A DNA stretch of 50,883 nt from Acidimicrobiales bacterium (GCA_036280455.1 DASUQS010000047.1:1-50883); one strand, 5' to 3'. Shown: positions 1-12,973, counted from the first letter of the stretch. Notes: generated by a model from the letters alone, not told the origin. Translations and numbers: made by a program.

Positions 1-424
<424 letters not shown>

Positions 425-927: not shown

Positions 928-2232
928 TCACACCCGGTCAGGTGCAACAGCCACGAGGAGCGCGTAATTCCGCTTTCCCTTGCGCAGGAGGACGTAGCGC
1001 CCGTGGAGGACGTCGTCCACGCCCACGACCGCGTCGGCACCGACCTTCCGCCCGTTCACCGACACGGCGCCCTGCTCGATCGACCGACGGGCATCGCCCT
1101 TCGAGCTCGCCAGTCCGCTCTCGACGAGGAGGGGGACGAGGTCAGCTCCCTCCCCCAGCTCGCCGGCGGACGGGAGAGGTGCCGTCGGTACCTCGTCAGC
1201 CACCGCCGCCAGTGCCCCGGGCCCCGCCTCGAGCGGCGACCCGCCGAACAGCAGCGCGGCGGCCCCGGCGGCCGCGTCCGCCGCCTGGTCCCCATGGACC
1301 AGTGCGGTGACCTCGCAGGCCAACCTGCGTTGGCCGGCGCGCCGCTCGGGGTGCTCCAGGTGCTCGGCGGCGATCGCATCCACCTCGCCCATGGGGAGGA
1401 GCGTGAACTTCGCCAGGAACTCGCGCACCTGACGGTCGTCGATCTGCATCCAGTGCTGGAAGAACTGGTACGGGGTGGTGCGCACCGGATCGAGCCAGAT
1501 GCGGGCCCCGGTCGTCTTCCCCAGCTTCGAGCCGTCGGGCGCGGTGAGCAGCGGCCACGACAGCCCGTGGGCGGTGGCTCCCCGCACCCGGCGGATGAGA
1601 TCGATGCCCGACAGGATGTTGCCCCACTGATCGGACCCGCCGATCTGCATCTCGACGCCCTGGTCCTCGTGCAGGCGCAGGAAGTCGTGAGCCTGCAGCA
1701 GCATGTAGCTGAACTCCGTGTAGCTGATGCCGTGCTCGCTGGCGAGCCGCGCCTTCACCGACTCGCGCGCCAGCATCTGGTTGACCGTCACGTGCTTGCC
1801 CACGTCCCGCAGGAAGTCGAGGAGCGTCACCCCGACCGTCCAGTCCCGGTTGTCGACCAGCAGGGCACGCCCGTCGTCGAAGTCGAGGATGCGCGCCATC
1901 TGCGCCTTGATCGCCGCCACGTTGGTGCTGAGGGTGTCGTCGTCGAGGAGGTTGCGCTCCTCGGACCGGCCGCTCGGGTCGCCCACCATGCCGGTGGCGC
2001 CGCCGGCGAGCGCGACCGGGCGATGCCCGGCGTCCTGGAAGCGGCGGAGCACCAGCAGGCCGATCAGGTTGCCGATGTGCAGGCTGTCGGCCGTCGGGTC
2101 GCAGCCGTAGTAGAGGGAGATCGGTCCCTCGGCCAACCGGTCGGCGAGTGCCTGCAGGTCGGTGCTGTCGTGCACCAGGCCGCGGGCCTCGAGGTCGTCG
2201 AGGATGCTCACATCTGCCGTCACGGGTGACAT
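928..2232 (-). CDS. tyrS: Tyrosyl-tRNA synthetase
   Basis: Class I motifs HIGN (HIGH variant) and KLGKT (KMSKS variant) are present, with a C-terminal S4-like domain (...GRYVLLRKGKRNYALL). I chose the start at ATG 2232 (MSPVTADVSILDDLEARGL), because the ORF's upstream 47 codons look non-coding. Confidence 0.95.
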   Translation of the reverse strand: MSPVTADVSILDDLEARGLVHDSTDLQALADRLAEGPISLYYGCDPTADSLHIGNLIGLLVLRRFQDAGHRPVALAGGATGMVGDPSGRSEERNLLDDDTLSTNVAAIKAQMARILDFDDGRALLVDNRDWTVGVTLLDFLRDVGKHVTVNQMLARESVKARLASEHGISYTEFSYMLLQAHDFLRLHEDQGVEMQIGGSDQWGNILSGIDLIRRVRGATAHGLSWPLLTAPDGSKLGKTTGARIWLDPVRTTPYQFFQHWMQIDDRQVREFLAKFTLLPMGEVDAIAAEHLEHPERRAGQRRLACEVTALVHGDQAADAAAGAAALLFGGSPLEAGPGALAAVADEVPTAPLPSAGELGEGADLVPLLVESGLASSKGDARRSIEQGAVSVNGRKVGADAVVGVDDVLHGRYVLLRKGKRNYALLVAVAPDRV

Positions 2233-2362
2233 GGTCCCCGGCCCGGCCGCGACCGGTCCAGCGCGATCCTCCTCCCCCGTTCGCCCGTGGGCCTCCGTGC
2301 CCACGGAGGACGGGCCTCCCGACTGGACTCGACAGGCGCCCGACGGGGAGCCTGTGCAGGTG

Positions 2363-2926
2363 ATGACCGACACGCGACCCGCGGACGAGCCCGACGCGCC
2401 GGAGGGTCGGCGCTGGACGCCGGTGCGGGCCTTCCTCGCCGTCGTCGTGCTCTCCCTCGTGGCGATGTGGGTCTACGTGCTGTTCCTGGCGATCGGACCC
2501 GGCCGCCAGCCTCCGATCGACCGCCTCGAGGATCCCGCCTTCGCCGAGGCCGGCGAAGCCCGGTGCGCCGAGGCGCTCGAGGACGTCGAGGCCTTGCCCG
2601 TCGCCAACGAGTCGACCACGGCGGCCGAGCGGGCGGAGGTGCTCAGCCGGGCCGACGCCGTCTTCGCCGACATGCTCGACGACCTCGACGCCTCGGTCGA
2701 CCTGGCTCCCGCCGGCGATCAGCGGCGCCGGGCCACCGAGTGGCTGGCCGACTGGCGCACCTACCTCGCCGATCGCGAGGCCTTCGCCGACGCCCTGCGC
2801 GTCGACCCCGAGGCTCGGCTGCTGGTCTCCGAGAAGCCCGGCGAGGGTCGCCAGATCACCGGTTGGATCGACGAGTTCGCCAAGGCCAACCGCATGCCCT
2901 CCTGCATCACCCCCGTCGACGCCTGA
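2363..2926 (+). CDS. Hypothetical single-pass membrane protein, divergent from tyrS
   Basis: Starts at ATG 2363 (MTDTRPADEP...). It has one hydrophobic helix (AFLAVVVLSLVAMWVYVLFLAI), an acidic soluble domain and high GC3. No family recognised. Confidence 0.65.
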   Translation: MTDTRPADEPDAPEGRRWTPVRAFLAVVVLSLVAMWVYVLFLAIGPGRQPPIDRLEDPAFAEAGEARCAEALEDVEALPVANESTTAAERAEVLSRADAVFADMLDDLDASVDLAPAGDQRRRATEWLADWRTYLADREAFADALRVDPEARLLVSEKPGEGRQITGWIDEFAKANRMPSCITPVDA

Positions 2927-3025: not shown

Positions 3026-3646
3026 TCAGGCCCGCCCGCGCTCCCCCTCGATCTCGTCCAGGGCGGCCAGCGCCGCCCGCGCCATGCGCAGTGTGCCGTC
3101 GTCCACCTCGAGCTCGGGCAGCTCGTCGTAGCTCGCCCAGCGGAGCGCCAGCGACTCGTGGTTGCCGACCGGGACGGCGCCGGGCGGCGCGATCGCCAGG
3201 TAGCGCACGTCGAGGTGCAGGTGCGGCCCGTGGGGCGGGCCCACCTCGTGGATGTCGAGGTCGATGGCGGGCAGCGCCACCGCCAGGCCCGTCACGCCGG
3301 TCTCCTCGACGGCCTCGCGCCAGGCCACCCCCGGGAGGTTGGCATCGCCGTCGGCGTGCCCGCCCGGCTGGAACCACCGACCGAGCTTGGCGTGGAGCAT
3401 GAGGAGGAACCGTCGATCGGCCGGGTCGACGACCATCGCGGAGCCCGTGAGGTGACCGGGCTCGCACGTGCGTTCCAGCGCGTCGGCGTGGGCGTCGACG
3501 AAGGCCAGCATCTCGCGCCGGTGGCGCTCGTGGTCGGCGTCGCCCGGGCGAGCCGCCGCGATGTGGGCACGGGCGTCGACCAGGCGCGAGGACCGGTCCA
3601 GCGCCGCGCTCGGCGGCCGGTGGACGGCGAACGGCCCGGCGCTCAC
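3026..3646 (-). CDS. NUDIX hydrolase (206 aa)
   Basis: This is the C-terminal 206 codons of track ORF 3026..8344. The Nudix box is GGHADGDANLPGVAWREAVEETGV (3293-3364), with REAVEETGV matching REUxEExGU. The GTG start at 3646 overlaps the upstream TGA stop (3643-3645) as GTGA. Confidence 0.85.
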   Translation of the reverse strand: MSAGPFAVHRPPSAALDRSSRLVDARAHIAAARPGDADHERHRREMLAFVDAHADALERTCEPGHLTGSAMVVDPADRRFLLMLHAKLGRWFQPGGHADGDANLPGVAWREAVEETGVTGLAVALPAIDLDIHEVGPPHGPHLHLDVRYLAIAPPGAVPVGNHESLALRWASYDELPELEVDDGTLRMARAALAALDEIEGERGRA

Positions 3647-6600
3647 CCTCGATCCGCCGCGTCGAGGTGAGCGTCGCCCGCACCGGGGTGGAGGGGGTCG
3701 AGGCTGCGGCCGCCCCCGTTGCCGGACGCCGCCGGCGACGCGCCTGCCGGCTCCGCGGCGACCATCTCGGCGCCGGCTGTCGGAGCCACGGCCGTCTGGG
3801 TGCCAGCGGTCGGAGGAGGACTCGTCGGGGCGGGCGCCACGGCCGGCGCAGGCCCGGGGCGCAGCGCACCGAGCCGATCGCCGATGACCCCCAGCTGGGC
3901 GGCGATGCGGGCCACCGGGTCGGACCCGTCGCCCAACGCCTGCACCCGGGCGAACGCATTCGTGACCTCGGCCCACCGCGCCGCTTGCTCCGGCGTCGTG
4001 CGGCCGCGGAGCTCCGCCAGCTTCAGCAGGTTGTGCTCGGCGCCGGAGGTGAGCGTCTGCGCCTCGGACCGGTAGTGGTCGTCGAGCAGCGACTCGACCT
4101 CGGCGTCGGTCATGCCCGGCACGATCCGCTCCACCAGCTTGTTCATGTTGCGATAGCTGCCCTGCAGCAGGAACGGCGGCTCGGTGCGGAAGGCGGCGTC
4201 CTGGCCCGCCGACGCGATGTACGCCTGGTTGACCGCCATCACGACCCGCTGCACACGGCGCACGATGCGCAGAACCGACACCAGCTCGGCGAGCTCGACC
4301 GCGCTGTACGGGTGGCTCAGGCGATCGGCCGGCACCTCCTCGCCGTCTGCCATCCGGACGAGCAGGGCCACATCCGCCAGATCGCGCCCCGCCAAGGGGG
4401 CGAGCACCGGGTTGGCGGTCAGGGAGTTCTCGACGTAGCTGAGAGCGAAGAGGTCGTCCTGCCCGGTGAGCACGTCGCCGAGGTTGTGGACGTCGGCCCG
4501 GTTGGCCAGCATGTCCGGCACGCGGAAGCGTTGCCCCGATTCGGTGTACGGATTGCCCGCCATGCACACGGCGAAGCGCTTGCCCCGCAGGTCGTAGGTG
4601 CGGGTGCGGCCCGCCCACACGCCTTCCATGCGCCGCTGGGCATCGCACAACGAGATGAACTTCTGCAGCAGCTCCGGGCTCGTGTGCTGGATGTCGTCGA
4701 GGTAGAGCAGCACGTTGTTGCCCATCTCGAGGGCGACGTTGATCTTGTCGACCTCCTGGCGGGCCGTGGCGTCGGGGGCGTCCGCGGGATCGAGCGACGT
4801 CACCCCCGTGCCCAGCGCCGGCCCGTTGACCTTGACGAACACCAACCCGAGGCGGCTGGCCACGTACTCCATCAGGGTCGTCTTGCCGTAGCCCGGTGGT
4901 GACACGAGGAGCAGGAGGCCGCTCTGGTCGGTGCGCCGGCCCTCGCCGACGGTGCCGAGCTGACGGGCGAGGTTGGCGCCCACCAGCGGGAGCACCGCCT
5001 CGTCGACCAGGTGGTTGCGCACGAAGGTGGACATCACCTTGGGCCGCAGCTCGTCGAGGCGCAACGCGTGCCGGGCCCGGGCGAGCGCCTGCTCGCGGGC
5101 CGCCGTCCAGCGGCGGAAGCCGGGCACCGTGGTGCGACGGAACCGCGCGGTGCGCGCCAGCACCTCGTCGAGCCGCACGGCGAGCGCGCCGTCGACGACC
5201 CGGGGATGCTGGCCGACGAGCCCGGTGACCTGCACGGTCCGCAGCCCCGACGACGTCGCCCGGGGCACCGGCGCCGCGGTCGACGCCCCGACCGGATCGG
5301 CCGCGGCGGGGCCGGCGGACGCACCCGTGCCTCCCGTCGGGGTGCCACCCGCCGCCGGGTTCGCACCCGAGGACGTGGACGAGCGTCGCCGCGGCGAGGA
5401 CGGCGTTGGGACGACGGCGTCTGTGAGGACGAGGGCCGCCGCCTCGTCGACCTCGGTCGCCAGGGCGGCGAGCTCCGGGTCGTCGGTCGCGCCGAGGAGG
5501 CCGGCCAACCAGGCGTGGACGAGCTGCCAGCGGGCGGCCAGGCCGCCGGCCGGACCGTCGCCCGCGCCACCCACGGCCGCCAGGTCGTCGTCGAAGGCCC
5601 GGCGCTGGCCGCTGCGCTCGAGGTGAGCCCACAGCCCGTCGCGGAGGGCGACCGCCTGGGCGCTCGTCGCGAACTGCAGCGAGGGCCGGGCCAGCTCTTC
5701 GAACAGGTACGCCGCCGCGGCGGTCGCGTCGTCCGGCGCCACGTCGAGCCCTGCGCCGTCGGCGCCCAGCGCGGCGGCCAGGCCTGTCGCCATCTCCGCC
5801 TGGAGGGCGGGGATCGCGGGACCGGACCCGAAGCTGGCACGCAGCCGGGCCAGGCTGGCGGCCCGGTGGCGCCAGCCGACGGCCCTGGCGCCCGCGCCCT
5901 GCTGGGCCCAGAACAGGCAGGCCAGCGCCCGGGGCAAGGGCGGCCAGCGCAGGCGGTCGGCGGTCTCGGTCGCCAGGACCAGCTGGTGGAGGATGAGCGC
6001 CGCGTCGTGGTCGTGGACACCGCGCTCGTAGCCCTCGTCGTAGCGGTCGGCGGCGTACGTGCGCACGACGTCGAGGAGCGTGCCCTCGGCCCCGGCCGCC
6101 AGCAGCCTCTCGACCGACAGGTCGCCCGTCCGGGCCTCCGCGTCGGCCAGCAGCGCCGTCGCCAGGAACTCCGCCCGGTAGACCTCGGCGGTCTCCGACA
6201 CGAGCCGCTGGTCCCAGTGGGCCTCGGTGCCGGCCAGCTCGGGATCGTCGAGAGGCTGGCGGAAGTCGGTGCCCGTCACCGCCAGTTCGAGATGACCGTC
6301 GCGGGGCACGACGGTGAGCTCGAACGGCTCGGTGGTGACCGAGAACCGGTGCCCGCCCAGGCGGATGACCTCGGCGCCGTCCTCGAACAGGTCGCGGCGG
6401 TCGCGCAGCGTCCGGGCGGCCTCCTGGCGCGCCGCGGTGAGCCGCCCGTCGATCTCGTCGGCCCGCACCGCGTCGTCGAGCTCCCGCAGGCGCGTCGAGA
6501 GCGACCGCAGGCGCTCGACCATGGGGTCGGCGGCGAAGTAGGCGTTGACGTCGTCGGGCGAGTCGAGCTGGGCCGCCCGGCGGGCCACCGTGGCGAGAAC

Positions 6601-8925
6601 CCGCTCGGCGTTGGCCACGAGGCGGTCGGCGTCGCGCTGGCGCTCGTCGAGCATGGCCTGCTTGCGGGCCGTGAACGCCTCGTAGATCTCGTCGCGGCGA
6701 CCGGCCAGCTGCTCTGCGTGGGCGTCGTCGTCGCCGAAGCGCGCCTCGAGCCCTTCGACCTGGGCCAGGAGGCGGGCGAGCTGGTCGTCGCAGGCGGCGG
6801 GCGTGGCCGCCAGGCCCAGTCCGCTGCCCACGGCCTCGGCCAGCAGGGCGAGCTGCGCGCCGAACTCCGCCGCCCCCTCGGACCGTGCCAGGTCGCGGCG
6901 GCGCCCCTCCGCGGAGGAGCGGGCGCGGTTCACCCCGGCCAGCACCTCTGACACCGATTGGAGCACCCGCGTGCGGTCGCGGGCGTCGTCGATCTTCAGG
7001 CCGTCGATCACCTCGGTGACGAGCGCCATCTCGTCGGCCACCGCGGTCAGCCCGGCCGCGCCCTCCGCTGCGTCCGCGGCCGCGCCGGCGGCCCGCCCCT
7101 CGGCGTCGAGGGCGGCGACCCGCTCGTGGTACGGGTCGAACGCCCCCTCCGCGAGCACGAAGCCCACCATGTCGGCGGCGATCCCGTCGAAGGTCTCGGC
7201 GACGCGGGACTCGAGCGCCTCCACCCGGTCGAGGTCGACGTAGCGCAGGTCGCGCAGGGAGACGACCCGCCCGCGCAGGGTCCGCAGCCGCGCCAGCGAA
7301 TCGACGAACCGCGTCACCGAGTCGAGCTTGACGGCCGGAAGCTCGCGCAGGAGCACGCGCAGGTCGCCGTCGACCTGGTCGGCGGCCTCGCCGGCCTGTG
7401 CGCGCAGCGCCTCGACCTTCTCGAACTCGTCGATGACCAGCTCGGCCGTCGAGCGCAGCTCGTGCAAGGGCGTCGCGAGGTCGCCCACCTGAGGATCGCC
7501 CAACCAGTGGTGCGCATCCTGCATCCGGCCGATGCGGGCGACCAGGTCCTCGTACCCGGCGCGCGACGGGTCGGGGTTGGCGGCCAGCCGCTCGATCGAC
7601 ACCGCGTCGCTGACGGCCCGCACGAGCTCGGCGTTGCCGACGACCTCGAGGAACGACTCCCCCACCGGTGCGGCCGCCGCGTGGTCGTCGGTGGCGAACG
7701 GCGTGCGCCAGATCTGCAGCGGGTGGACGCGCGTGGGCTCCTCGCTCTCCGCCCGCAGCACGACCATCGTGCCGTCGTCGAAGATGCCGTAGCCGTGGCA
7801 GACGACCTGCTGGGCCACGTCCTTGCGGATCAGGTTGTACGGCAGCAGGTTGGTGCGCCCGGCCTCGCGCTCGTGGAACGCGTAGAGGACGTCCTCCCCG
7901 TTCGGCGCCCGGCGAGCTTCGACGAAGATCATCGAGTCGACGTCGCCTTCGAACGTCCGGTGCTCCCCGGACGCCAGCACGTAGCCGCCCGGGAAGATCA
8001 GCCCGTGGTCCTCCGGCAGCTGCTGGCAGGCGGCGCCGATCGCGTCGATGCGCTCGACCTGGCGGGTCCGCGTGTTGAACACGAGGTGGCGCCAGGTGTC
8101 CTCCTTGTACGGGCGGATGCGCAGGAGGATCAGCGGGCCGAGCCGGCAGTGGTGGATGTCGGCGTCGGCGAGGCCCTGGGTGGGCTGGTCGACGGGCTCG
8201 GACCAGATCCCCTCCCCCGTCTCGGTGTTGTTCTCGACCTTGATGGTGAGGTCGCCACCGATCGTCTCGACGAACAGCTCGTCGCCGATGCTGACGTGCG
8301 GGTACCGGCCGGTCACGTGGTCGTCGCGGGTCGTCTCGACCCACTCGAAGTCGTGCGCGGACGGGAACACGTGCTCGCGCTCGCCCCGGTCGTCGATGTA
8401 GCGCACCGTGCCGTCGCGCTCGAGGGCCCAGCGGAACACCTTGAGGTCGGCGGCGGCCCGGCCCGTCTGGAAGACCGCCAACAGGCGACCCTCCAACCGG
8501 CGCAGCTGCACGAGACGGGTGTCCTTGTAGTAGCGGAACACCTCGCCGAAGTCGTGGACGAAGGCCGGGTCGGCCAGGAAGTTGGCGGGGTCGCCCGCGT
8601 CCACGTCGTGCAGCTCGTAGGAACCGCCGTCGTTCGCCTCCAGCCGGTGGAGGCTCAGCACGTCGGCGACCGCGGTCTCGGACCGCAGTCCGATGAAGAC
8701 GTTGTAGCCGAACAGCAGCAGCGGGCCGACGGTGACCGCGTCGCGCGGGACGCAGTTGTTGCGCGTGCGGATGCGGGCGGCACCGACGAGCGCCAGATCG
8801 GTGGATCCGAAGGTCTCGTGGCGGGCGTCGTTGAGACGACGGGCCCGCGCGGCGAGCTCGCGCGCCTGGTCGCCCAGGCGCGCCCGCAGCAGCTCGTAGG
8901 TGCCGCCCTCGGCGGGGGTGCTCAC
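3643..8925 (-). CDS. Giant AAA+ ATPase (1,760 aa). Members of this family are usually given the generic label 'DNA repair ATPase' (DUF3686-type N-terminus, from my recollection).
   Basis: I found a single P-loop, LVSPPGYGKTTL (Walker A GYGKTT, 4876-4893), and a Walker B LLYLDD (4693-4710). The N-terminal ~420 aa are beta-rich, followed by a long Ala/Arg/Glu/Leu helical middle. A Ser/Pro/Gly/Thr linker lies at ~5242-5409, and the C-terminal tail is Pro/Ala-rich. The GTG start at 8925 overlaps the flotillin stop as GTGA. Confidence 0.85.
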   Translation of the reverse strand: MSTPAEGGTYELLRARLGDQARELAARARRLNDARHETFGSTDLALVGAARIRTRNNCVPRDAVTVGPLLLFGYNVFIGLRSETAVADVLSLHRLEANDGGSYELHDVDAGDPANFLADPAFVHDFGEVFRYYKDTRLVQLRRLEGRLLAVFQTGRAAADLKVFRWALERDGTVRYIDDRGEREHVFPSAHDFEWVETTRDDHVTGRYPHVSIGDELFVETIGGDLTIKVENNTETGEGIWSEPVDQPTQGLADADIHHCRLGPLILLRIRPYKEDTWRHLVFNTRTRQVERIDAIGAACQQLPEDHGLIFPGGYVLASGEHRTFEGDVDSMIFVEARRAPNGEDVLYAFHEREAGRTNLLPYNLIRKDVAQQVVCHGYGIFDDGTMVVLRAESEEPTRVHPLQIWRTPFATDDHAAAAPVGESFLEVVGNAELVRAVSDAVSIERLAANPDPSRAGYEDLVARIGRMQDAHHWLGDPQVGDLATPLHELRSTAELVIDEFEKVEALRAQAGEAADQVDGDLRVLLRELPAVKLDSVTRFVDSLARLRTLRGRVVSLRDLRYVDLDRVEALESRVAETFDGIAADMVGFVLAEGAFDPYHERVAALDAEGRAAGAAADAAEGAAGLTAVADEMALVTEVIDGLKIDDARDRTRVLQSVSEVLAGVNRARSSAEGRRRDLARSEGAAEFGAQLALLAEAVGSGLGLAATPAACDDQLARLLAQVEGLEARFGDDDAHAEQLAGRRDEIYEAFTARKQAMLDERQRDADRLVANAERVLATVARRAAQLDSPDDVNAYFAADPMVERLRSLSTRLRELDDAVRADEIDGRLTAARQEAARTLRDRRDLFEDGAEVIRLGGHRFSVTTEPFELTVVPRDGHLELAVTGTDFRQPLDDPELAGTEAHWDQRLVSETAEVYRAEFLATALLADAEARTGDLSVERLLAAGAEGTLLDVVRTYAADRYDEGYERGVHDHDAALILHQLVLATETADRLRWPPLPRALACLFWAQQGAGARAVGWRHRAASLARLRASFGSGPAIPALQAEMATGLAAALGADGAGLDVAPDDATAAAAYLFEELARPSLQFATSAQAVALRDGLWAHLERSGQRRAFDDDLAAVGGAGDGPAGGLAARWQLVHAWLAGLLGATDDPELAALATEVDEAAALVLTDAVVPTPSSPRRRSSTSSGANPAAGGTPTGGTGASAGPAAADPVGASTAAPVPRATSSGLRTVQVTGLVGQHPRVVDGALAVRLDEVLARTARFRRTTVPGFRRWTAAREQALARARHALRLDELRPKVMSTFVRNHLVDEAVLPLVGANLARQLGTVGEGRRTDQSGLLLLVSPPGYGKTTLMEYVASRLGLVFVKVNGPALGTGVTSLDPADAPDATARQEVDKINVALEMGNNVLLYLDDIQHTSPELLQKFISLCDAQRRMEGVWAGRTRTYDLRGKRFAVCMAGNPYTESGQRFRVPDMLANRADVHNLGDVLTGQDDLFALSYVENSLTANPVLAPLAGRDLADVALLVRMADGEEVPADRLSHPYSAVELAELVSVLRIVRRVQRVVMAVNQAYIASAGQDAAFRTEPPFLLQGSYRNMNKLVERIVPGMTDAEVESLLDDHYRSEAQTLTSGAEHNLLKLAELRGRTTPEQAARWAEVTNAFARVQALGDGSDPVARIAAQLGVIGDRLGALRPGPAPAVAPAPTSPPPTAGTQTAVAPTAGAEMVAAEPAGASPAASGNGGGRSLDPLHPGAGDAHLDAADRG

Positions 8926-11010: not shown

Positions 11011-11769
11011 TCAGGAGAGGCCGTCTGCGCCGGCCTCGAGCGCCTCGACCGGGCACACGAGGAAGACCTCGGCCGCCGGGTCGTAGTCGAAGATCAACGC
11101 CTGCTCGCCACGGGCGAACGAGGCGGAGGCGTGCCCGTCGGCGTCGGGTGGCACCCGTACCTGGACGAGCACGGTCGCACCGGACGGATCGGCGGCCTCG
11201 GCCTGGCCGAAGCTCGTGCTGACCCCCGCGGTGCGGATGGTGCACGTGCGGCCGACGAAGGCCTGGTTGCTCTCGGCCTCCGTCGTGACGAACAGGCGCC
11301 CGAGCGGCCGGGCGAGCACCGACGCGCCCAGCGAGCCGGCGACGAGCGCCACGGCGATGACGACCAGGCCGGCGAGCAGCCGGACGGTCGGGTCGACGTC
11401 CCAGCTGTCGGCCGCGGCGGTGGCCACGAGGGCGACCAGCCACCCGAACACCACGACGAGGCTGGCCGCGAGCGTGACGGGCACACCGGCCAGACCCAAG
11501 GCCTGCCACCATCCCGCCAACAGTCCACCGTCGGTCGCGGCGTCGCCCGCTCCGTCGCCCCCGGCATCGCCGTGAGCGCCGACGCCGTCACCGACGTCGA
11601 GGCCGCCGTCCACGTCGACGCCGTCGACACCGTCGACACCCAGGTCACCGAACAGGTCGATGTCGAGAGCCCCGAGCACCACGGCGAGCCAGTAGGCGAG
11701 GACGGGCGCGAGCAGCACGGTGAAGACCACCGCCGGAAAACCGAGAGCCGCATCGAAGAACCCGCCCAT
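11011..11769 (-). CDS. NfeD/YqiJ-like (DUF1449-type) membrane protein with a C-terminal OB-like domain
   Basis: Several TM helices and an acidic Gly/Asp-rich loop (DGVDGVDVDGGLDVGDG) are present. The C-terminal soluble segment (FVGRTCTIRTAGVSTSFGQAEA...VLVQVRV) resembles an NfeD OB fold. It sits immediately upstream of the flotillin gene, as in yqiJ-yqiK and yuaF-floT pairs. An alternative GTG start exists at 11805. Confidence 0.7.
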   Translation of the reverse strand: MGGFFDAALGFPAVVFTVLLAPVLAYWLAVVLGALDIDLFGDLGVDGVDGVDVDGGLDVGDGVGAHGDAGGDGAGDAATDGGLLAGWWQALGLAGVPVTLAASLVVVFGWLVALVATAAADSWDVDPTVRLLAGLVVIAVALVAGSLGASVLARPLGRLFVTTEAESNQAFVGRTCTIRTAGVSTSFGQAEAADPSGATVLVQVRVPPDADGHASASFARGEQALIFDYDPAAEVFLVCPVEALEAGADGLS

Positions 11770-11837
11770 GCCTGGCGCCGACGCTACCTGCCACCGCGCC
11801 ACCACGAATCGCGGCCGGGGGAGGTGTCATCCACCTG

Positions 11838-12587
11838 TCACGCACCGGGCGCGGAGGGCGGCGACACACCCCGCAGCGCGGCCGTACCCGACACGTTGGG
11901 GTCGCCGGGGACGCACCACCGCCAGGGATGCTCGGCACCGGCGGTGAGGCCGATGCGGGTGGTCTGGTGGGGTCGGGCGGGCGGCGGCGTGCCGTCGTCG
12001 GCCAGCCACACGCCACGGTCGCCGCGCACGAGGTCGGCGCCGTCGAACGACCCGTCGAGCCCGAACGCCTGGCACAGCTTGGCGGGACCGCTGCACAGGT
12101 CGCGGTCGCGCCGCGCCCGCGGCCGGGCCGCGCGCATGGCCTCGACACCGGCCACCGGGGCCAGCGCCCGTAGGAGCACCGCCACGCCCTCGCCGTCGTC
12201 GCCGCACACGACGTTGGCGCACCAGTGCATCCCGTAGGAGAAGTACACGTACAGGCCACCCGGCGGGCCGAACATCGTGCGGTTCCGGGGCGTCATCCCC
12301 CGGAACGCGTGGCTGCCCGGATCGGCCGCGCCGCAGTACGCCTCGACCTCGACGATCCGCCCGACGCGCAGCCCGCCACCGTCCTTCCCGACAGCTCCAG
12401 CGCCCGCGTCGGCCTCATCTGCCTCGACCTCCGGGTCGGCCCGGTCGTCCCAGCGGACCAGCAGCTTGTTGAGGAGGTCGGGAGCGACCGCCCGCGAATC
12501 CCGTCGCAGGAACGAGCGGTCGACGACGGCACCGAACGCCGGCGGTCGCCCACCCGAGGACGGACCGGCCGCCGACCGGCCCGTCAT
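11838..12587 (-). CDS. mpg: DNA-3-methyladenine glycosylase (AAG/Mpg family)
   Basis: Contains GRIVEVEAYCGAADPGSHAFRGMTPRNRTMFGPPGGLYVYFSYGMHWCANVV, typical of the Mpg family. The ATG at 12587 overlaps the upstream stop as ATGA. Confidence 0.85.
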   Translation of the reverse strand: MTGRSAAGPSSGGRPPAFGAVVDRSFLRRDSRAVAPDLLNKLLVRWDDRADPEVEADEADAGAGAVGKDGGGLRVGRIVEVEAYCGAADPGSHAFRGMTPRNRTMFGPPGGLYVYFSYGMHWCANVVCGDDGEGVAVLLRALAPVAGVEAMRAARPRARRDRDLCSGPAKLCQAFGLDGSFDGADLVRGDRGVWLADDGTPPPARPHQTTRIGLTAGAEHPWRWCVPGDPNVSGTAALRGVSPPSAPGA

Positions 12588-12973
12588 GACAGCGCCGACC
12601 GCACCGCCTCGGGCACCGGGGTCGGCTCGATCGTTCCCGGCGTGACCGCCACGTAGGTCACGACCGCGGTGAACACGGGCTGCTCGTCGACCGAGCCCTC
12701 GAACCCGATGTCGAAGCTCGTGCGCCCCCACCGGCGGGCTCCGACGTCGATCGCCAGCACGTCGCCGAAGCCGGCGCTTCCGTGCCACGTGAGGTCGGCC
12801 CGCTTGAGCACCATGTCGACCGCGCCCGAGCTGTGGTAGTCGTCGCCGAGCACGGCCCGGAACCACCCGTCGCACGCCTCGTCGACGTAGGTCAGGTAGT
12901 GGGCGTTGAAGGCGTGGCGCTGCATGTCCACCTCGCCGTAGCGGATGCGGATCTCGTGGCGGTACAGGCTCAC
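12584..12973 (-). CDS. Acyl-CoA thioesterase, 4HBT/YbgC-like hotdog fold (129 aa)
   Basis: This is the C-terminal part of track ORF 12584..14011. The sequence VSLYRHEIRIRYGEVDMQRHAFNAHYLTYVDEA... matches the hotdog thioesterase N-terminal pattern. The GTG at 12973 overlaps the argH stop as GTGA. Confidence 0.8.
   Translation of the reverse strand: MSLYRHEIRIRYGEVDMQRHAFNAHYLTYVDEACDGWFRAVLGDDYHSSGAVDMVLKRADLTWHGSAGFGDVLAIDVGARRWGRTSFDIGFEGSVDEQPVFTAVVTYVAVTPGTIEPTPVPEAVRSALS

Follow-up and report, generated by a model that had tools for sequence, protein, structure and literature searches.

We analysed a stretch of 50,883 nucleotides from an Acidimicrobiales bacterium (GCA_036280455.1, DASUQS010000047.1:1-50883; hereafter the window), which encodes a giant ATPase of 1,760 amino acids (aa). 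This protein is an unremarkable orthologue within the catalogued family defined by DUF3686 + DUF7902 + AAA (PF12458 + PF25472 + AAA), whose RefSeq/NCBI name is ‘DNA repair ATPase’. The most informative feature of the locus is a conserved operon in which the ATPase follows a flotillin-like gene and a YqiJ-like gene, and which was absent from a preliminary description of this DNA. Linkage of the ATPase to the flotillin-like gene is near-obligate and extends across at least five phyla. Because the conserved neighbours are membrane proteins, including the product of the flotillin-like gene, ‘DNA repair ATPase’ is probably a misnomer. The protein may well use ATP instead to remodel scaffolds of the flotillin/PspA type on the cytoplasmic side of the membrane. 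Both the architecture and the operon are already known, having been described computationally by Ravi et al. (2024). Our survey contributes the view from the ATPase side, in which the flotillin-like linkage is essentially obligate (81/81 loci).

Conserved gene neighbourhood

The YqiJ-like gene comes first in the operon of the window, followed by the SPFH/flotillin-like gene and, third, the ATPase gene, all on the minus strand (Table 1). The GTG start of the ATPase shares the sequence GTGA with the stop of the SPFH gene, so that the two genes overlap. We used tblastn to compare the window proteins with eighty-five related loci, eighty-one of which had upstream DNA and were informative. An SPFH homologue was found upstream and on the same strand in all eighty-one. 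It lies directly upstream except at locus L077, and at one of the eighty-one loci the distance is 6.5 kb. About seventy of the same eighty-one also carry the YqiJ-like gene.

The 687-aa flotillin-like protein begins with a transmembrane (TM) helix (aa 1-32), followed by a globular, divergent SPFH/Band-7 domain, an Ala/Glu-rich coiled coil of about 350 aa, and a C-terminal domain that is conserved. Its counterpart in Sphaerisporangium (L001 5915-7993), with which it shares 65% identity, has a Pfam match to Band_7 at 1.5e-7. When the window protein and five orthologues were aligned, three of the six sequences reached Band_7, and the window protein was not among them. The orthologue on the megaplasmid pQBR103 carries the RefSeq label ‘SPFH domain-containing protein’. 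Pfam detected no Flot C-terminal domain in the 687-aa protein. Searching the PDB with this sequence alone gave no match, and its profile gave a marginal match to QmcA (E = 0.019). In the 264-aa YqiJ-like protein, the segments aa 13-53 and aa 100-168 are hydrophobic, and the soluble β region at the C-terminus is conserved. RefSeq names the Hymenobacter orthologue a ‘DUF1449 family protein’ (YqiJ type); the window protein has no significant Pfam, NCBIfam, or PDB-profile match.

The operon is occasionally extended by PspA/IM30 and CesT/Tir genes. PspA/IM30 adjoins the module in eleven of eighty-seven loci, namely the Pseudomonas group, pQBR103, a Hymenobacter plasmid, L005, and L070, and on the Hymenobacter plasmid a ‘chaperone Tir’-PspA pair sits beside the module. 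On pQBR103, a Pseudomonas fluorescens megaplasmid (L086, NC_009444.1 85449-100870), the module ends a run of genes for PspA/IM30, a rhomboid protease, DUF2491, DUF350, DUF1190, and a glutathionylspermidine-synthase-like protein, and an MvaT/MvaU gene comes after it. Judged from annotations, this upstream run resembles what we take to be the yjf cluster of Escherichia coli (PspA, DUF2491, DUF350, DUF1190, and a GspS-like gene). The pQBR103 locus also offers a tractable experimental system. Locus L005 (13453-16026, plus strand), from a metagenome-assembled genome (MAG), has a PspA_IM30 gene directly after the module together with a separate 588-aa AAA protein, which may be the PspA-associated two-domain AAA+ protein of Ravi et al. 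(2024).

Published description

Ravi et al. (2024) (mSystems 9:e00847-23, PMC11237479) reported a ‘Betapropeller+Coiled-coil+AAA-ATPase’ coded beside Band-7/flotillin and YqiJ/YuaF membrane proteins, with Dokdonia donghaensis ANH61663.1 as an example neighbourhood. Their operon joins CesT/Tir-PspA with these three genes and is tied to PspA envelope-stress systems. They also found that ‘abbreviated’ operons without PspA are widely distributed, and proposed a chaperone-like role in sub-membrane dynamics. The window contains the abbreviated form. It shares with the published operon the domain order of the ATPase and an SPFH protein with a TM helix and coiled-coil composition, but it lacks the CesT/Tir-PspA dyad and has a NUDIX gene, overlapped start to stop, downstream. 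The 264-aa protein fits the three-TM YqiJ/YuaF partner in position, size, and hydrophobic segments, and through the DUF1449 annotation of its orthologue, though not by a profile match. Our literature searches found no paper on DUF3686, PF12458, or ‘DNA repair ATPase’ with flotillin, and a study of SPFH proteins in Pseudomonas aeruginosa (PMC13086221) does not cover the three-gene module.

The gene and its family

Since the G+C content of the window is about 74%, long spurious open reading frames (ORFs) are abundant. Two minus-strand ORFs, each of about 1,770 codons, overlap at the ATPase locus, and gene status in this window cannot rest on ORF length alone. The ATPase coding sequence (CDS) is a real gene, with an in-frame G+C content at third codon positions (GC3) of 0.95 and a normal protein composition. 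The other ORF (3026..8344, minus strand, 1,772 codons), which lies in a different frame, is an Arg/Pro/Gly-rich shadow of the ATPase CDS and is coding only in its last ~200 codons, where it encodes a NUDIX protein. The coordinates given in the preliminary description for the 1,760-aa ATPase, its P-loop, its Walker B motif, and its linker are all exact.

A word-indexed search returned 6,057 homologous proteins. The best 120 of these are 1,604-1,943 aa long and 52-94% identical to the query across 90-100% of its length; all but one carry the same Pfam set, and NCBI gives many of them the name ‘DNA repair ATPase’. Among these 120, conservation is high over the full length and peaks in the AAA core; it is lost only in the linker and the Pro/Ala tail (gap fraction 0.44-0.74). 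Scanning one genome per species confirmed at least 518 loci. Taxa among the loci listed include Actinomycetota, Myxococcota, Acidobacteriota, Gammaproteobacteria (Pseudomonas, Xenorhabdus, Moellerella, and Paraglaciecola), and a Clostridia MAG. An exhaustive HMMER search with aa 1-480 as query returned matches forming 735 clusters at 50% identity. Nearly all of the long matches (~1,600-2,000 aa) have the domain at their N-terminus, and the shorter ones resemble fragments.

Given thousands of colinear homologues and these 735 clusters, the order of propeller, arm, and AAA domain is the norm of the family and no oddity of this gene. The preliminary description had called the architecture unusual, a view that does not survive the comparison: it is the standard colinear layout of a large named family and was published by Ravi et al. 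(2024). As a discovery, the architecture therefore matters little, being the norm of a Pfam-defined and NCBI-named family that was in print in 2024.

Domain organization of the ATPase

We aligned two segments of the window protein (aa 1-1165 and aa 1229-1690) to 100 full-length homologues and then modelled each with AlphaFold2 (AF2). The model of aa 1229-1690 has a predicted local distance difference test score (pLDDT) of 81.7 and contains one AAA+ α/β core. Its β1 strand leads into Walker A, β3 bears Walker B, and after β5 come a large helical lid and the C-terminal domain. Walker A reads SPPGYGKTT, with K1348 as its lysine, and Walker B reads LLYLDD, with D1410-D1411 as its acidic pair. β4 ends in N1458, the sensor-1 residue, and R1476 is a candidate Arg finger. 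K1348, D1410, D1411, N1458, R1476, and R1592 are invariant in 100 of 100 aligned homologues. The same 100 all have a Walker B of the form hhhhDD, not DE, followed by an invariant Q-H (LDDIQH). The β2-α2 loop GPALGTGVTSLDPADAPD (consensus GPALGHxVTSxDP) contains no aromatic-hydrophobic pore-loop motif, and across the family aromatic residues are missing from the pore-loop-1 position (aa 1368-1385).

Only one motor module was found. A regular-expression scan of the 1,760-aa protein gave one Walker A and one Walker B, and Pfam gave a single AAA/AAA_5 stretch at aa 1338-1462, where PF00004 matches profile positions 1-69 of 131 only. The AAA_5 score of 26.1 bits (cut-off 22) is much the same as the 27.2 bits of the generic AAA profile; AAA_3 had no match in the Pfam search of the ATPase. 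Aligning an AAA-core profile with hhalign to five regions (aa 1-480, 481-850, 851-1165, 1229-1324, and 1491-1690) did not reveal a second, degenerate AAA module, as each region returned a probability below 1%. Neither AF2 model has a β-α-β region beyond the core, and outside aa 1336-1481 both are all-β or all-α only. Motif scans, Pfam, hhalign, and AF2 thus agree with the preliminary description that a single P-loop and Walker B lie near the C-terminus, and Pfam, hhalign, and AF2 show no additional degenerate AAA modules. The ATPase has no TM segment.

Foldseek placed RuvB first among the relatives of the motor model (7x5b, E = 8.8e-7), followed by MCM, NorQ/CbbQ, and Skd3. The best NCBIfam matches of the ATPase are also RuvB, far under threshold. 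PDB sequence searches with the ATPase sequence and with the family profile matched only ~35 residues round the P-loop. As modelled, the motor is an AAA+ domain of the pre-sensor-1 β-hairpin type, nearest to RuvB.

The model of aa 1-1165 (md7ef6b24069a) has a mean pLDDT of 85.7. The match to PF12458 scores 656.2 bits against a cut-off of 25 and covers profile positions 1-448 of 448. When the N-terminal β region was compared with the PDB, Foldseek returned β-propellers only (E from 1e-6 to 1e-3, at ~10% identity), including prolyl oligopeptidase, paraoxonase, the clathrin terminal domain, the LRRK2 WD40 domain, and IFT-A. Matches of this kind at ~10% identity indicate that the predicted N-terminal fold is a propeller without a specific known relative. 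We also considered a protocoatomer or dynein resemblance of aa 1-1165 and rejected it: full-length matches to clathrin, IFT-A, and dynein have template-modelling scores (TM-scores) of at most 0.12 and root-mean-square deviations (rmsd) of 40-60 Å, and we took them for generic propeller and long-helix matches. The all-α domain at aa 901-1165 had no match in Pfam or PDB searches.

Several parts of the preliminary description hold for this region as well. Its β-rich, propeller-like N-terminus corresponds to the all-β AF2 region at aa 45-407, for which Foldseek found propellers only, and the domain there is a Pfam family of unknown function (DUF3686) and not a well-characterised domain with a known ligand. 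The long helical region is present as AF2 helices across aa 413-1165, but it is not continuous, as the small β unit at aa 854-891 interrupts it. The disordered, flexible Ser/Pro/Gly/Thr linker and the Pro/Ala tail are likewise present, and both are non-conserved in the homologue alignment.

Table 1. Features of the ATPase and its two operon partners, with positions counted from the first nucleotide of the window.
Feature	Residues	Nucleotides	Strand	Basis
ATPase CDS, DUF3686 / ‘DNA repair ATPase’ family		3643..8925	-	GC3; Pfam DUF3686 + DUF7902 + AAA; 120 colinear homologues at ≥52% identity
N-terminal α-helix, before propeller	9-39	8809..8901	-	AF2, pLDDT ~90
Pfam DUF3686 (PF12458, ‘ATPase involved in DNA repair’)	23-473	7507-8859	-	E = 2.5e-197; propeller is its core
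β-propeller, ~seven four-stranded blades	45-407	7705..8793	-	AF2 all-β; Foldseek (prolyl oligopeptidase, paraoxonase, clathrin, and WD40 propellers at E 1e-4 to 1e-6)
Long-helix/coiled-coil arm, helices up to 58 residues	413-846	6388..7689	-	AF2
Pfam DUF7902 (PF25472), within arm	595-677	6895-7143	-	E = 2.6e-23; 82.5 bits vs cut-off 26
Small β unit inside helical region	854-891	6253..6366	-	AF2, pLDDT 55-78; sequence kept in homologues
All-α domain	901-1165	5431..6225	-	AF2, pLDDT mostly 86-96
Ser/Pro/Gly/Thr low-complexity linker, not conserved	1173-1228	5242..5409	-	Composition; homologue alignment
Pre-AAA region, two short strands and two long helices	1229-1335	4921..5241	-	AF2 model m171d186e7384
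Single AAA+ α/β core	1336-1481	4483..4920	-	Pfam, motifs, AF2, Foldseek
GYGKTT	1345-1350	4876-4893	-	Motif scan
LLYLDD	1406-1411	4693-4710	-	Motif scan
Pre-sensor-1 β-hairpin, after α3 and before β4	1432-1445	4591-4632	-	AF2
Lid and C-terminal helical domain, with conserved GSYRN (R1592, candidate sensor 2)	1482-1687	3865..4482	-	AF2 pLDDT mostly 89-97; conservation
Pro/Ala/Gly-rich C-terminal tail, not conserved	1688-1760	3646..3864	-	Composition; homologue alignment
SPFH/Band-7 flotillin-like partner, 687 aa		8922..10985	-	Orthologues; directly upstream of ATPase
Putative YqiJ/YuaF (NfeD-like) type membrane protein, 264 aa, first gene of module		11011..11805	-	Orthologue position, hydrophobicity

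Other neighbouring genes

Downstream of the ATPase, a 206-aa NUDIX hydrolase is encoded at 3026-3646 (minus strand). Its GTG start overlaps the ATPase stop as GTGA, which suggests translational coupling of the two genes in this genome. Upstream of the module, a methylpurine-DNA glycosylase gene (11838-12875, minus strand; Pfam Pur_DNA_glyco, 1.6e-60) stops 32 nt short of the YqiJ-like gene and may be co-transcribed. The glycosylase ORF as listed has an Arg-rich N-terminal extension of ~120 aa, so the true start is probably further downstream. At the edge of the window, which cuts it, lies the 5′ 417 nt of a 16S rRNA gene (1-423, minus strand; Rfam RF00177, 403 bits), adjoined by a tyrosyl-tRNA synthetase gene (928-2373, minus strand). 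Homologues of the glycosylase, ArgH, TyrRS, and NUDIX proteins were found beside the module in none of the eighty-seven related loci.

Defence-like genes occur at some of those loci and are not systematic across them. RloB and AAA_21 lie just downstream of the ATPase in Sphaerisporangium (L001 13705-15607, minus strand), and DUF433, Unstab_antitox, CTD10, and DUF2326 lie just downstream of it at L004 (15318-19382).

Proposed role and alternatives

Remodelling of flotillin/PspA-type scaffolds, which we give about an even chance of being correct, would proceed as follows. The propeller and coiled-coil arm would bring the soluble ATPase to the cytoplasmic side of the membrane, where they would dock on the flotillin-like scaffold and possibly on PspA polymers encoded elsewhere. 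The AAA+ domains are expected to oligomerise into a ring, given the invariant arginine at the position predicted for an Arg finger. ATP hydrolysis could then assemble, remodel, disassemble, or recycle the flotillin-like (perhaps PspA) scaffold under envelope stress, by a logic that may be analogous to that of Vps4 with ESCRT-III or FtsH with HflK/C. Both ATP hydrolysis and ring assembly are predicted from the invariant residues K1348, D1410/D1411, N1458, R1476, and R1592.

Some points weigh against this proposal. The SPFH-like and YqiJ-like proteins of the window fall under Pfam and NCBIfam thresholds and are assigned through their orthologues, and it is only from gene order that we infer that the ATPase physically contacts the flotillin-like protein. 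Neither tblastn nor a hidden Markov model built from the PspA sequences of related loci found a PspA in the 50.9-kb window. The relative placement of domains in the two AF2 models is uncertain (predicted TM-scores, pTM, of 0.52 and 0.69), and our literature search turned up no experimental work on a member of the family.

In HflK/C-FtsH, an SPFH cage encloses the AAA+ protease FtsH. By that precedent the ATPase could act in quality control of membrane proteins as an unfoldase or disaggregase that threads its substrates. It would then be a protease-less counterpart of FtsH in an SPFH cage, with the propeller as substrate receptor. Its motor belongs with ClpX, Lon, and HslU in the pre-sensor-1-hairpin group, and Skd3 is among the Foldseek matches. 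However, the β2-α2 loop is without an aromatic-hydrophobic pore-loop motif, Walker B is Asp-Asp and not Asp-Glu in every aligned homologue, and there is no protease domain in the ATPase or protease gene in the conserved operon. We consider this reading unlikely, and the missing pore-loop-1 aromatic residue together with the Asp-Asp Walker B argues for a remodeller or switch over a processive polypeptide-threading unfoldase. An anti-phage or other conflict system, in which the flotillin/YqiJ pair would sense perturbation of the envelope and the ATPase would be effector or switch, is somewhat more doubtful. In its favour are the patchy spread of the module (Actinomycetota, Myxococcota, Acidobacteriota, Gammaproteobacteria, Bacteroidota, and Deinococcus), a pattern suggestive of horizontal transfer, its presence on megaplasmids such as pQBR103, the RloB + AAA_21 and toxin-antitoxin neighbours at L001 and L004, and weak P-loop matches to IetA/IteA. 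Yet PADLOC gave only ~30-residue P-loop matches for the ATPase and none for its two partners, and only 13 of 72,556 plasmid records carry the family, mostly megaplasmids or mis-filed chromosomes. The surroundings in the window are housekeeping genes (tyrS, 16S rRNA, and argH), and in the ATPase Pfam found no toxic effector domain such as a nuclease or a protease.

The ‘DNA repair ATPase’ of NCBI and the ‘ATPase involved in DNA repair’ of Pfam would imply, as database names, a RuvB-like DNA translocase acting on damaged or branched DNA. RuvB is indeed the nearest neighbour of the motor in both NCBIfam and Foldseek, and in this window the glycosylase gene lies directly upstream of the module on the same strand. 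The RuvB scores are nevertheless far under their cut-offs (20.3 vs 282 bits and 19.2 vs 27 bits), Pfam and PDB searches of the ATPase detected no DNA-binding domain, and we found no paper tying DUF3686/PF12458 to DNA repair. We rejected the idea of a ‘DNA repair neighbourhood’: the glycosylase is absent from the eighty-seven related loci, where the conserved partners are membrane proteins, and its adjacency is a coincidence of this genome. DNA repair is therefore a very improbable function, and the name probably derives from the RuvB-like similarity of the P-loop. The MoxR/dynein-like motor with a sensor or scaffold arm that the preliminary description favoured is the hardest of these readings to credit. 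It draws on AAA_5 (dynein-related) passing its threshold by a small amount (26.1 vs 22 bits), on NorQ and CbbQ in the Foldseek list, and on dynein heavy chains among the low-scoring matches of the helical arm. The last of these (TM-score ≤0.12, rmsd >48 Å) reflect long helices only. In the AF2 model a loop and short helix connect β2 (segment residues 134-139) to α2 (158-173) at pLDDT ~89-93, with no helix-2 β-insert. No VWA family occurs among the neighbours in the window, L001-L005, L086, or L087; there is one AAA module and not six; and the closest neighbours in structure and in sequence are of the RuvB type.

Scaffold remodelling can also be framed more boldly, as a tentative proposal that we think less likely to be right than wrong. 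The family might be dedicated to the ATP-driven remodelling of flotillin assemblies in bacteria, as their obligate remodeller. Its seven-bladed propeller and its arm would grasp the conserved C-terminal domain of the cognate SPFH protein, and a RuvB-like ring would then open, close, or recycle the flotillin/PspA scaffold under envelope stress. We know of no enzyme for remodelling bacterial flotillin assemblies. If the proposal is true, the family would be the SPFH counterpart in bacteria of Vps4/ESCRT-III, and the long-debated function of bacterial flotillins would become testable through a clean ATPase-dead allele. More generally, a flotillin-coupled ATPase is a possible handle on the function of bacterial flotillin/NfeD/PspA scaffolds. 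Meanwhile, the unsupported name ‘DNA repair ATPase’ stands on thousands of database entries, at odds with the conserved membrane context.

Comparison with known systems

RuvB, the best Foldseek and NCBIfam match, shares with the ATPase the layout of α3, β-hairpin, and β4 in the models. The motifs near Walker B (IDEIHR in what we take to be the RuvB sequence, LDDIQH here) and at the Arg finger are presumably similar too. The ATPase differs from RuvB in its low scores (20.3 bits against the NCBIfam equivalog, 19.2 against RuvB_N), in having neither RuvA/RuvC partners nor a DNA-binding domain, in its 1,330 extra N-terminal residues, and in a Walker B with DD where RuvB has DE. It resembles the MoxR proteins (RavA, CbbQ, and NorQ) in its single AAA+ module, its marginal AAA_5 match, and the presence of NorQ/CbbQ in the Foldseek list, but it shows no helix-2 insert in the AF2 model, has no VWA partner, is about six times larger, and carries a propeller and coiled-coil arm. 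Dynein and midasin concatenate six AAA+ modules, whereas the ATPase has one.

The predicted pre-sensor-1 hairpin sets the ATPase outside the classical AAA clade (FtsH, Vps4, and p97), from which it also differs in its partial match to PF00004, a profile that members of the clade match in full, second region of homology included. Compared with HflK/C-FtsH and Vps4, it is without a protease domain, MIT domain, or TM anchor. What it has in common with HflK/C-FtsH and Vps4/ESCRT-III is a functional analogy only: an AAA+ protein genetically coupled, at the cytoplasmic membrane, to an SPFH scaffold and, at some loci, to PspA/IM30.

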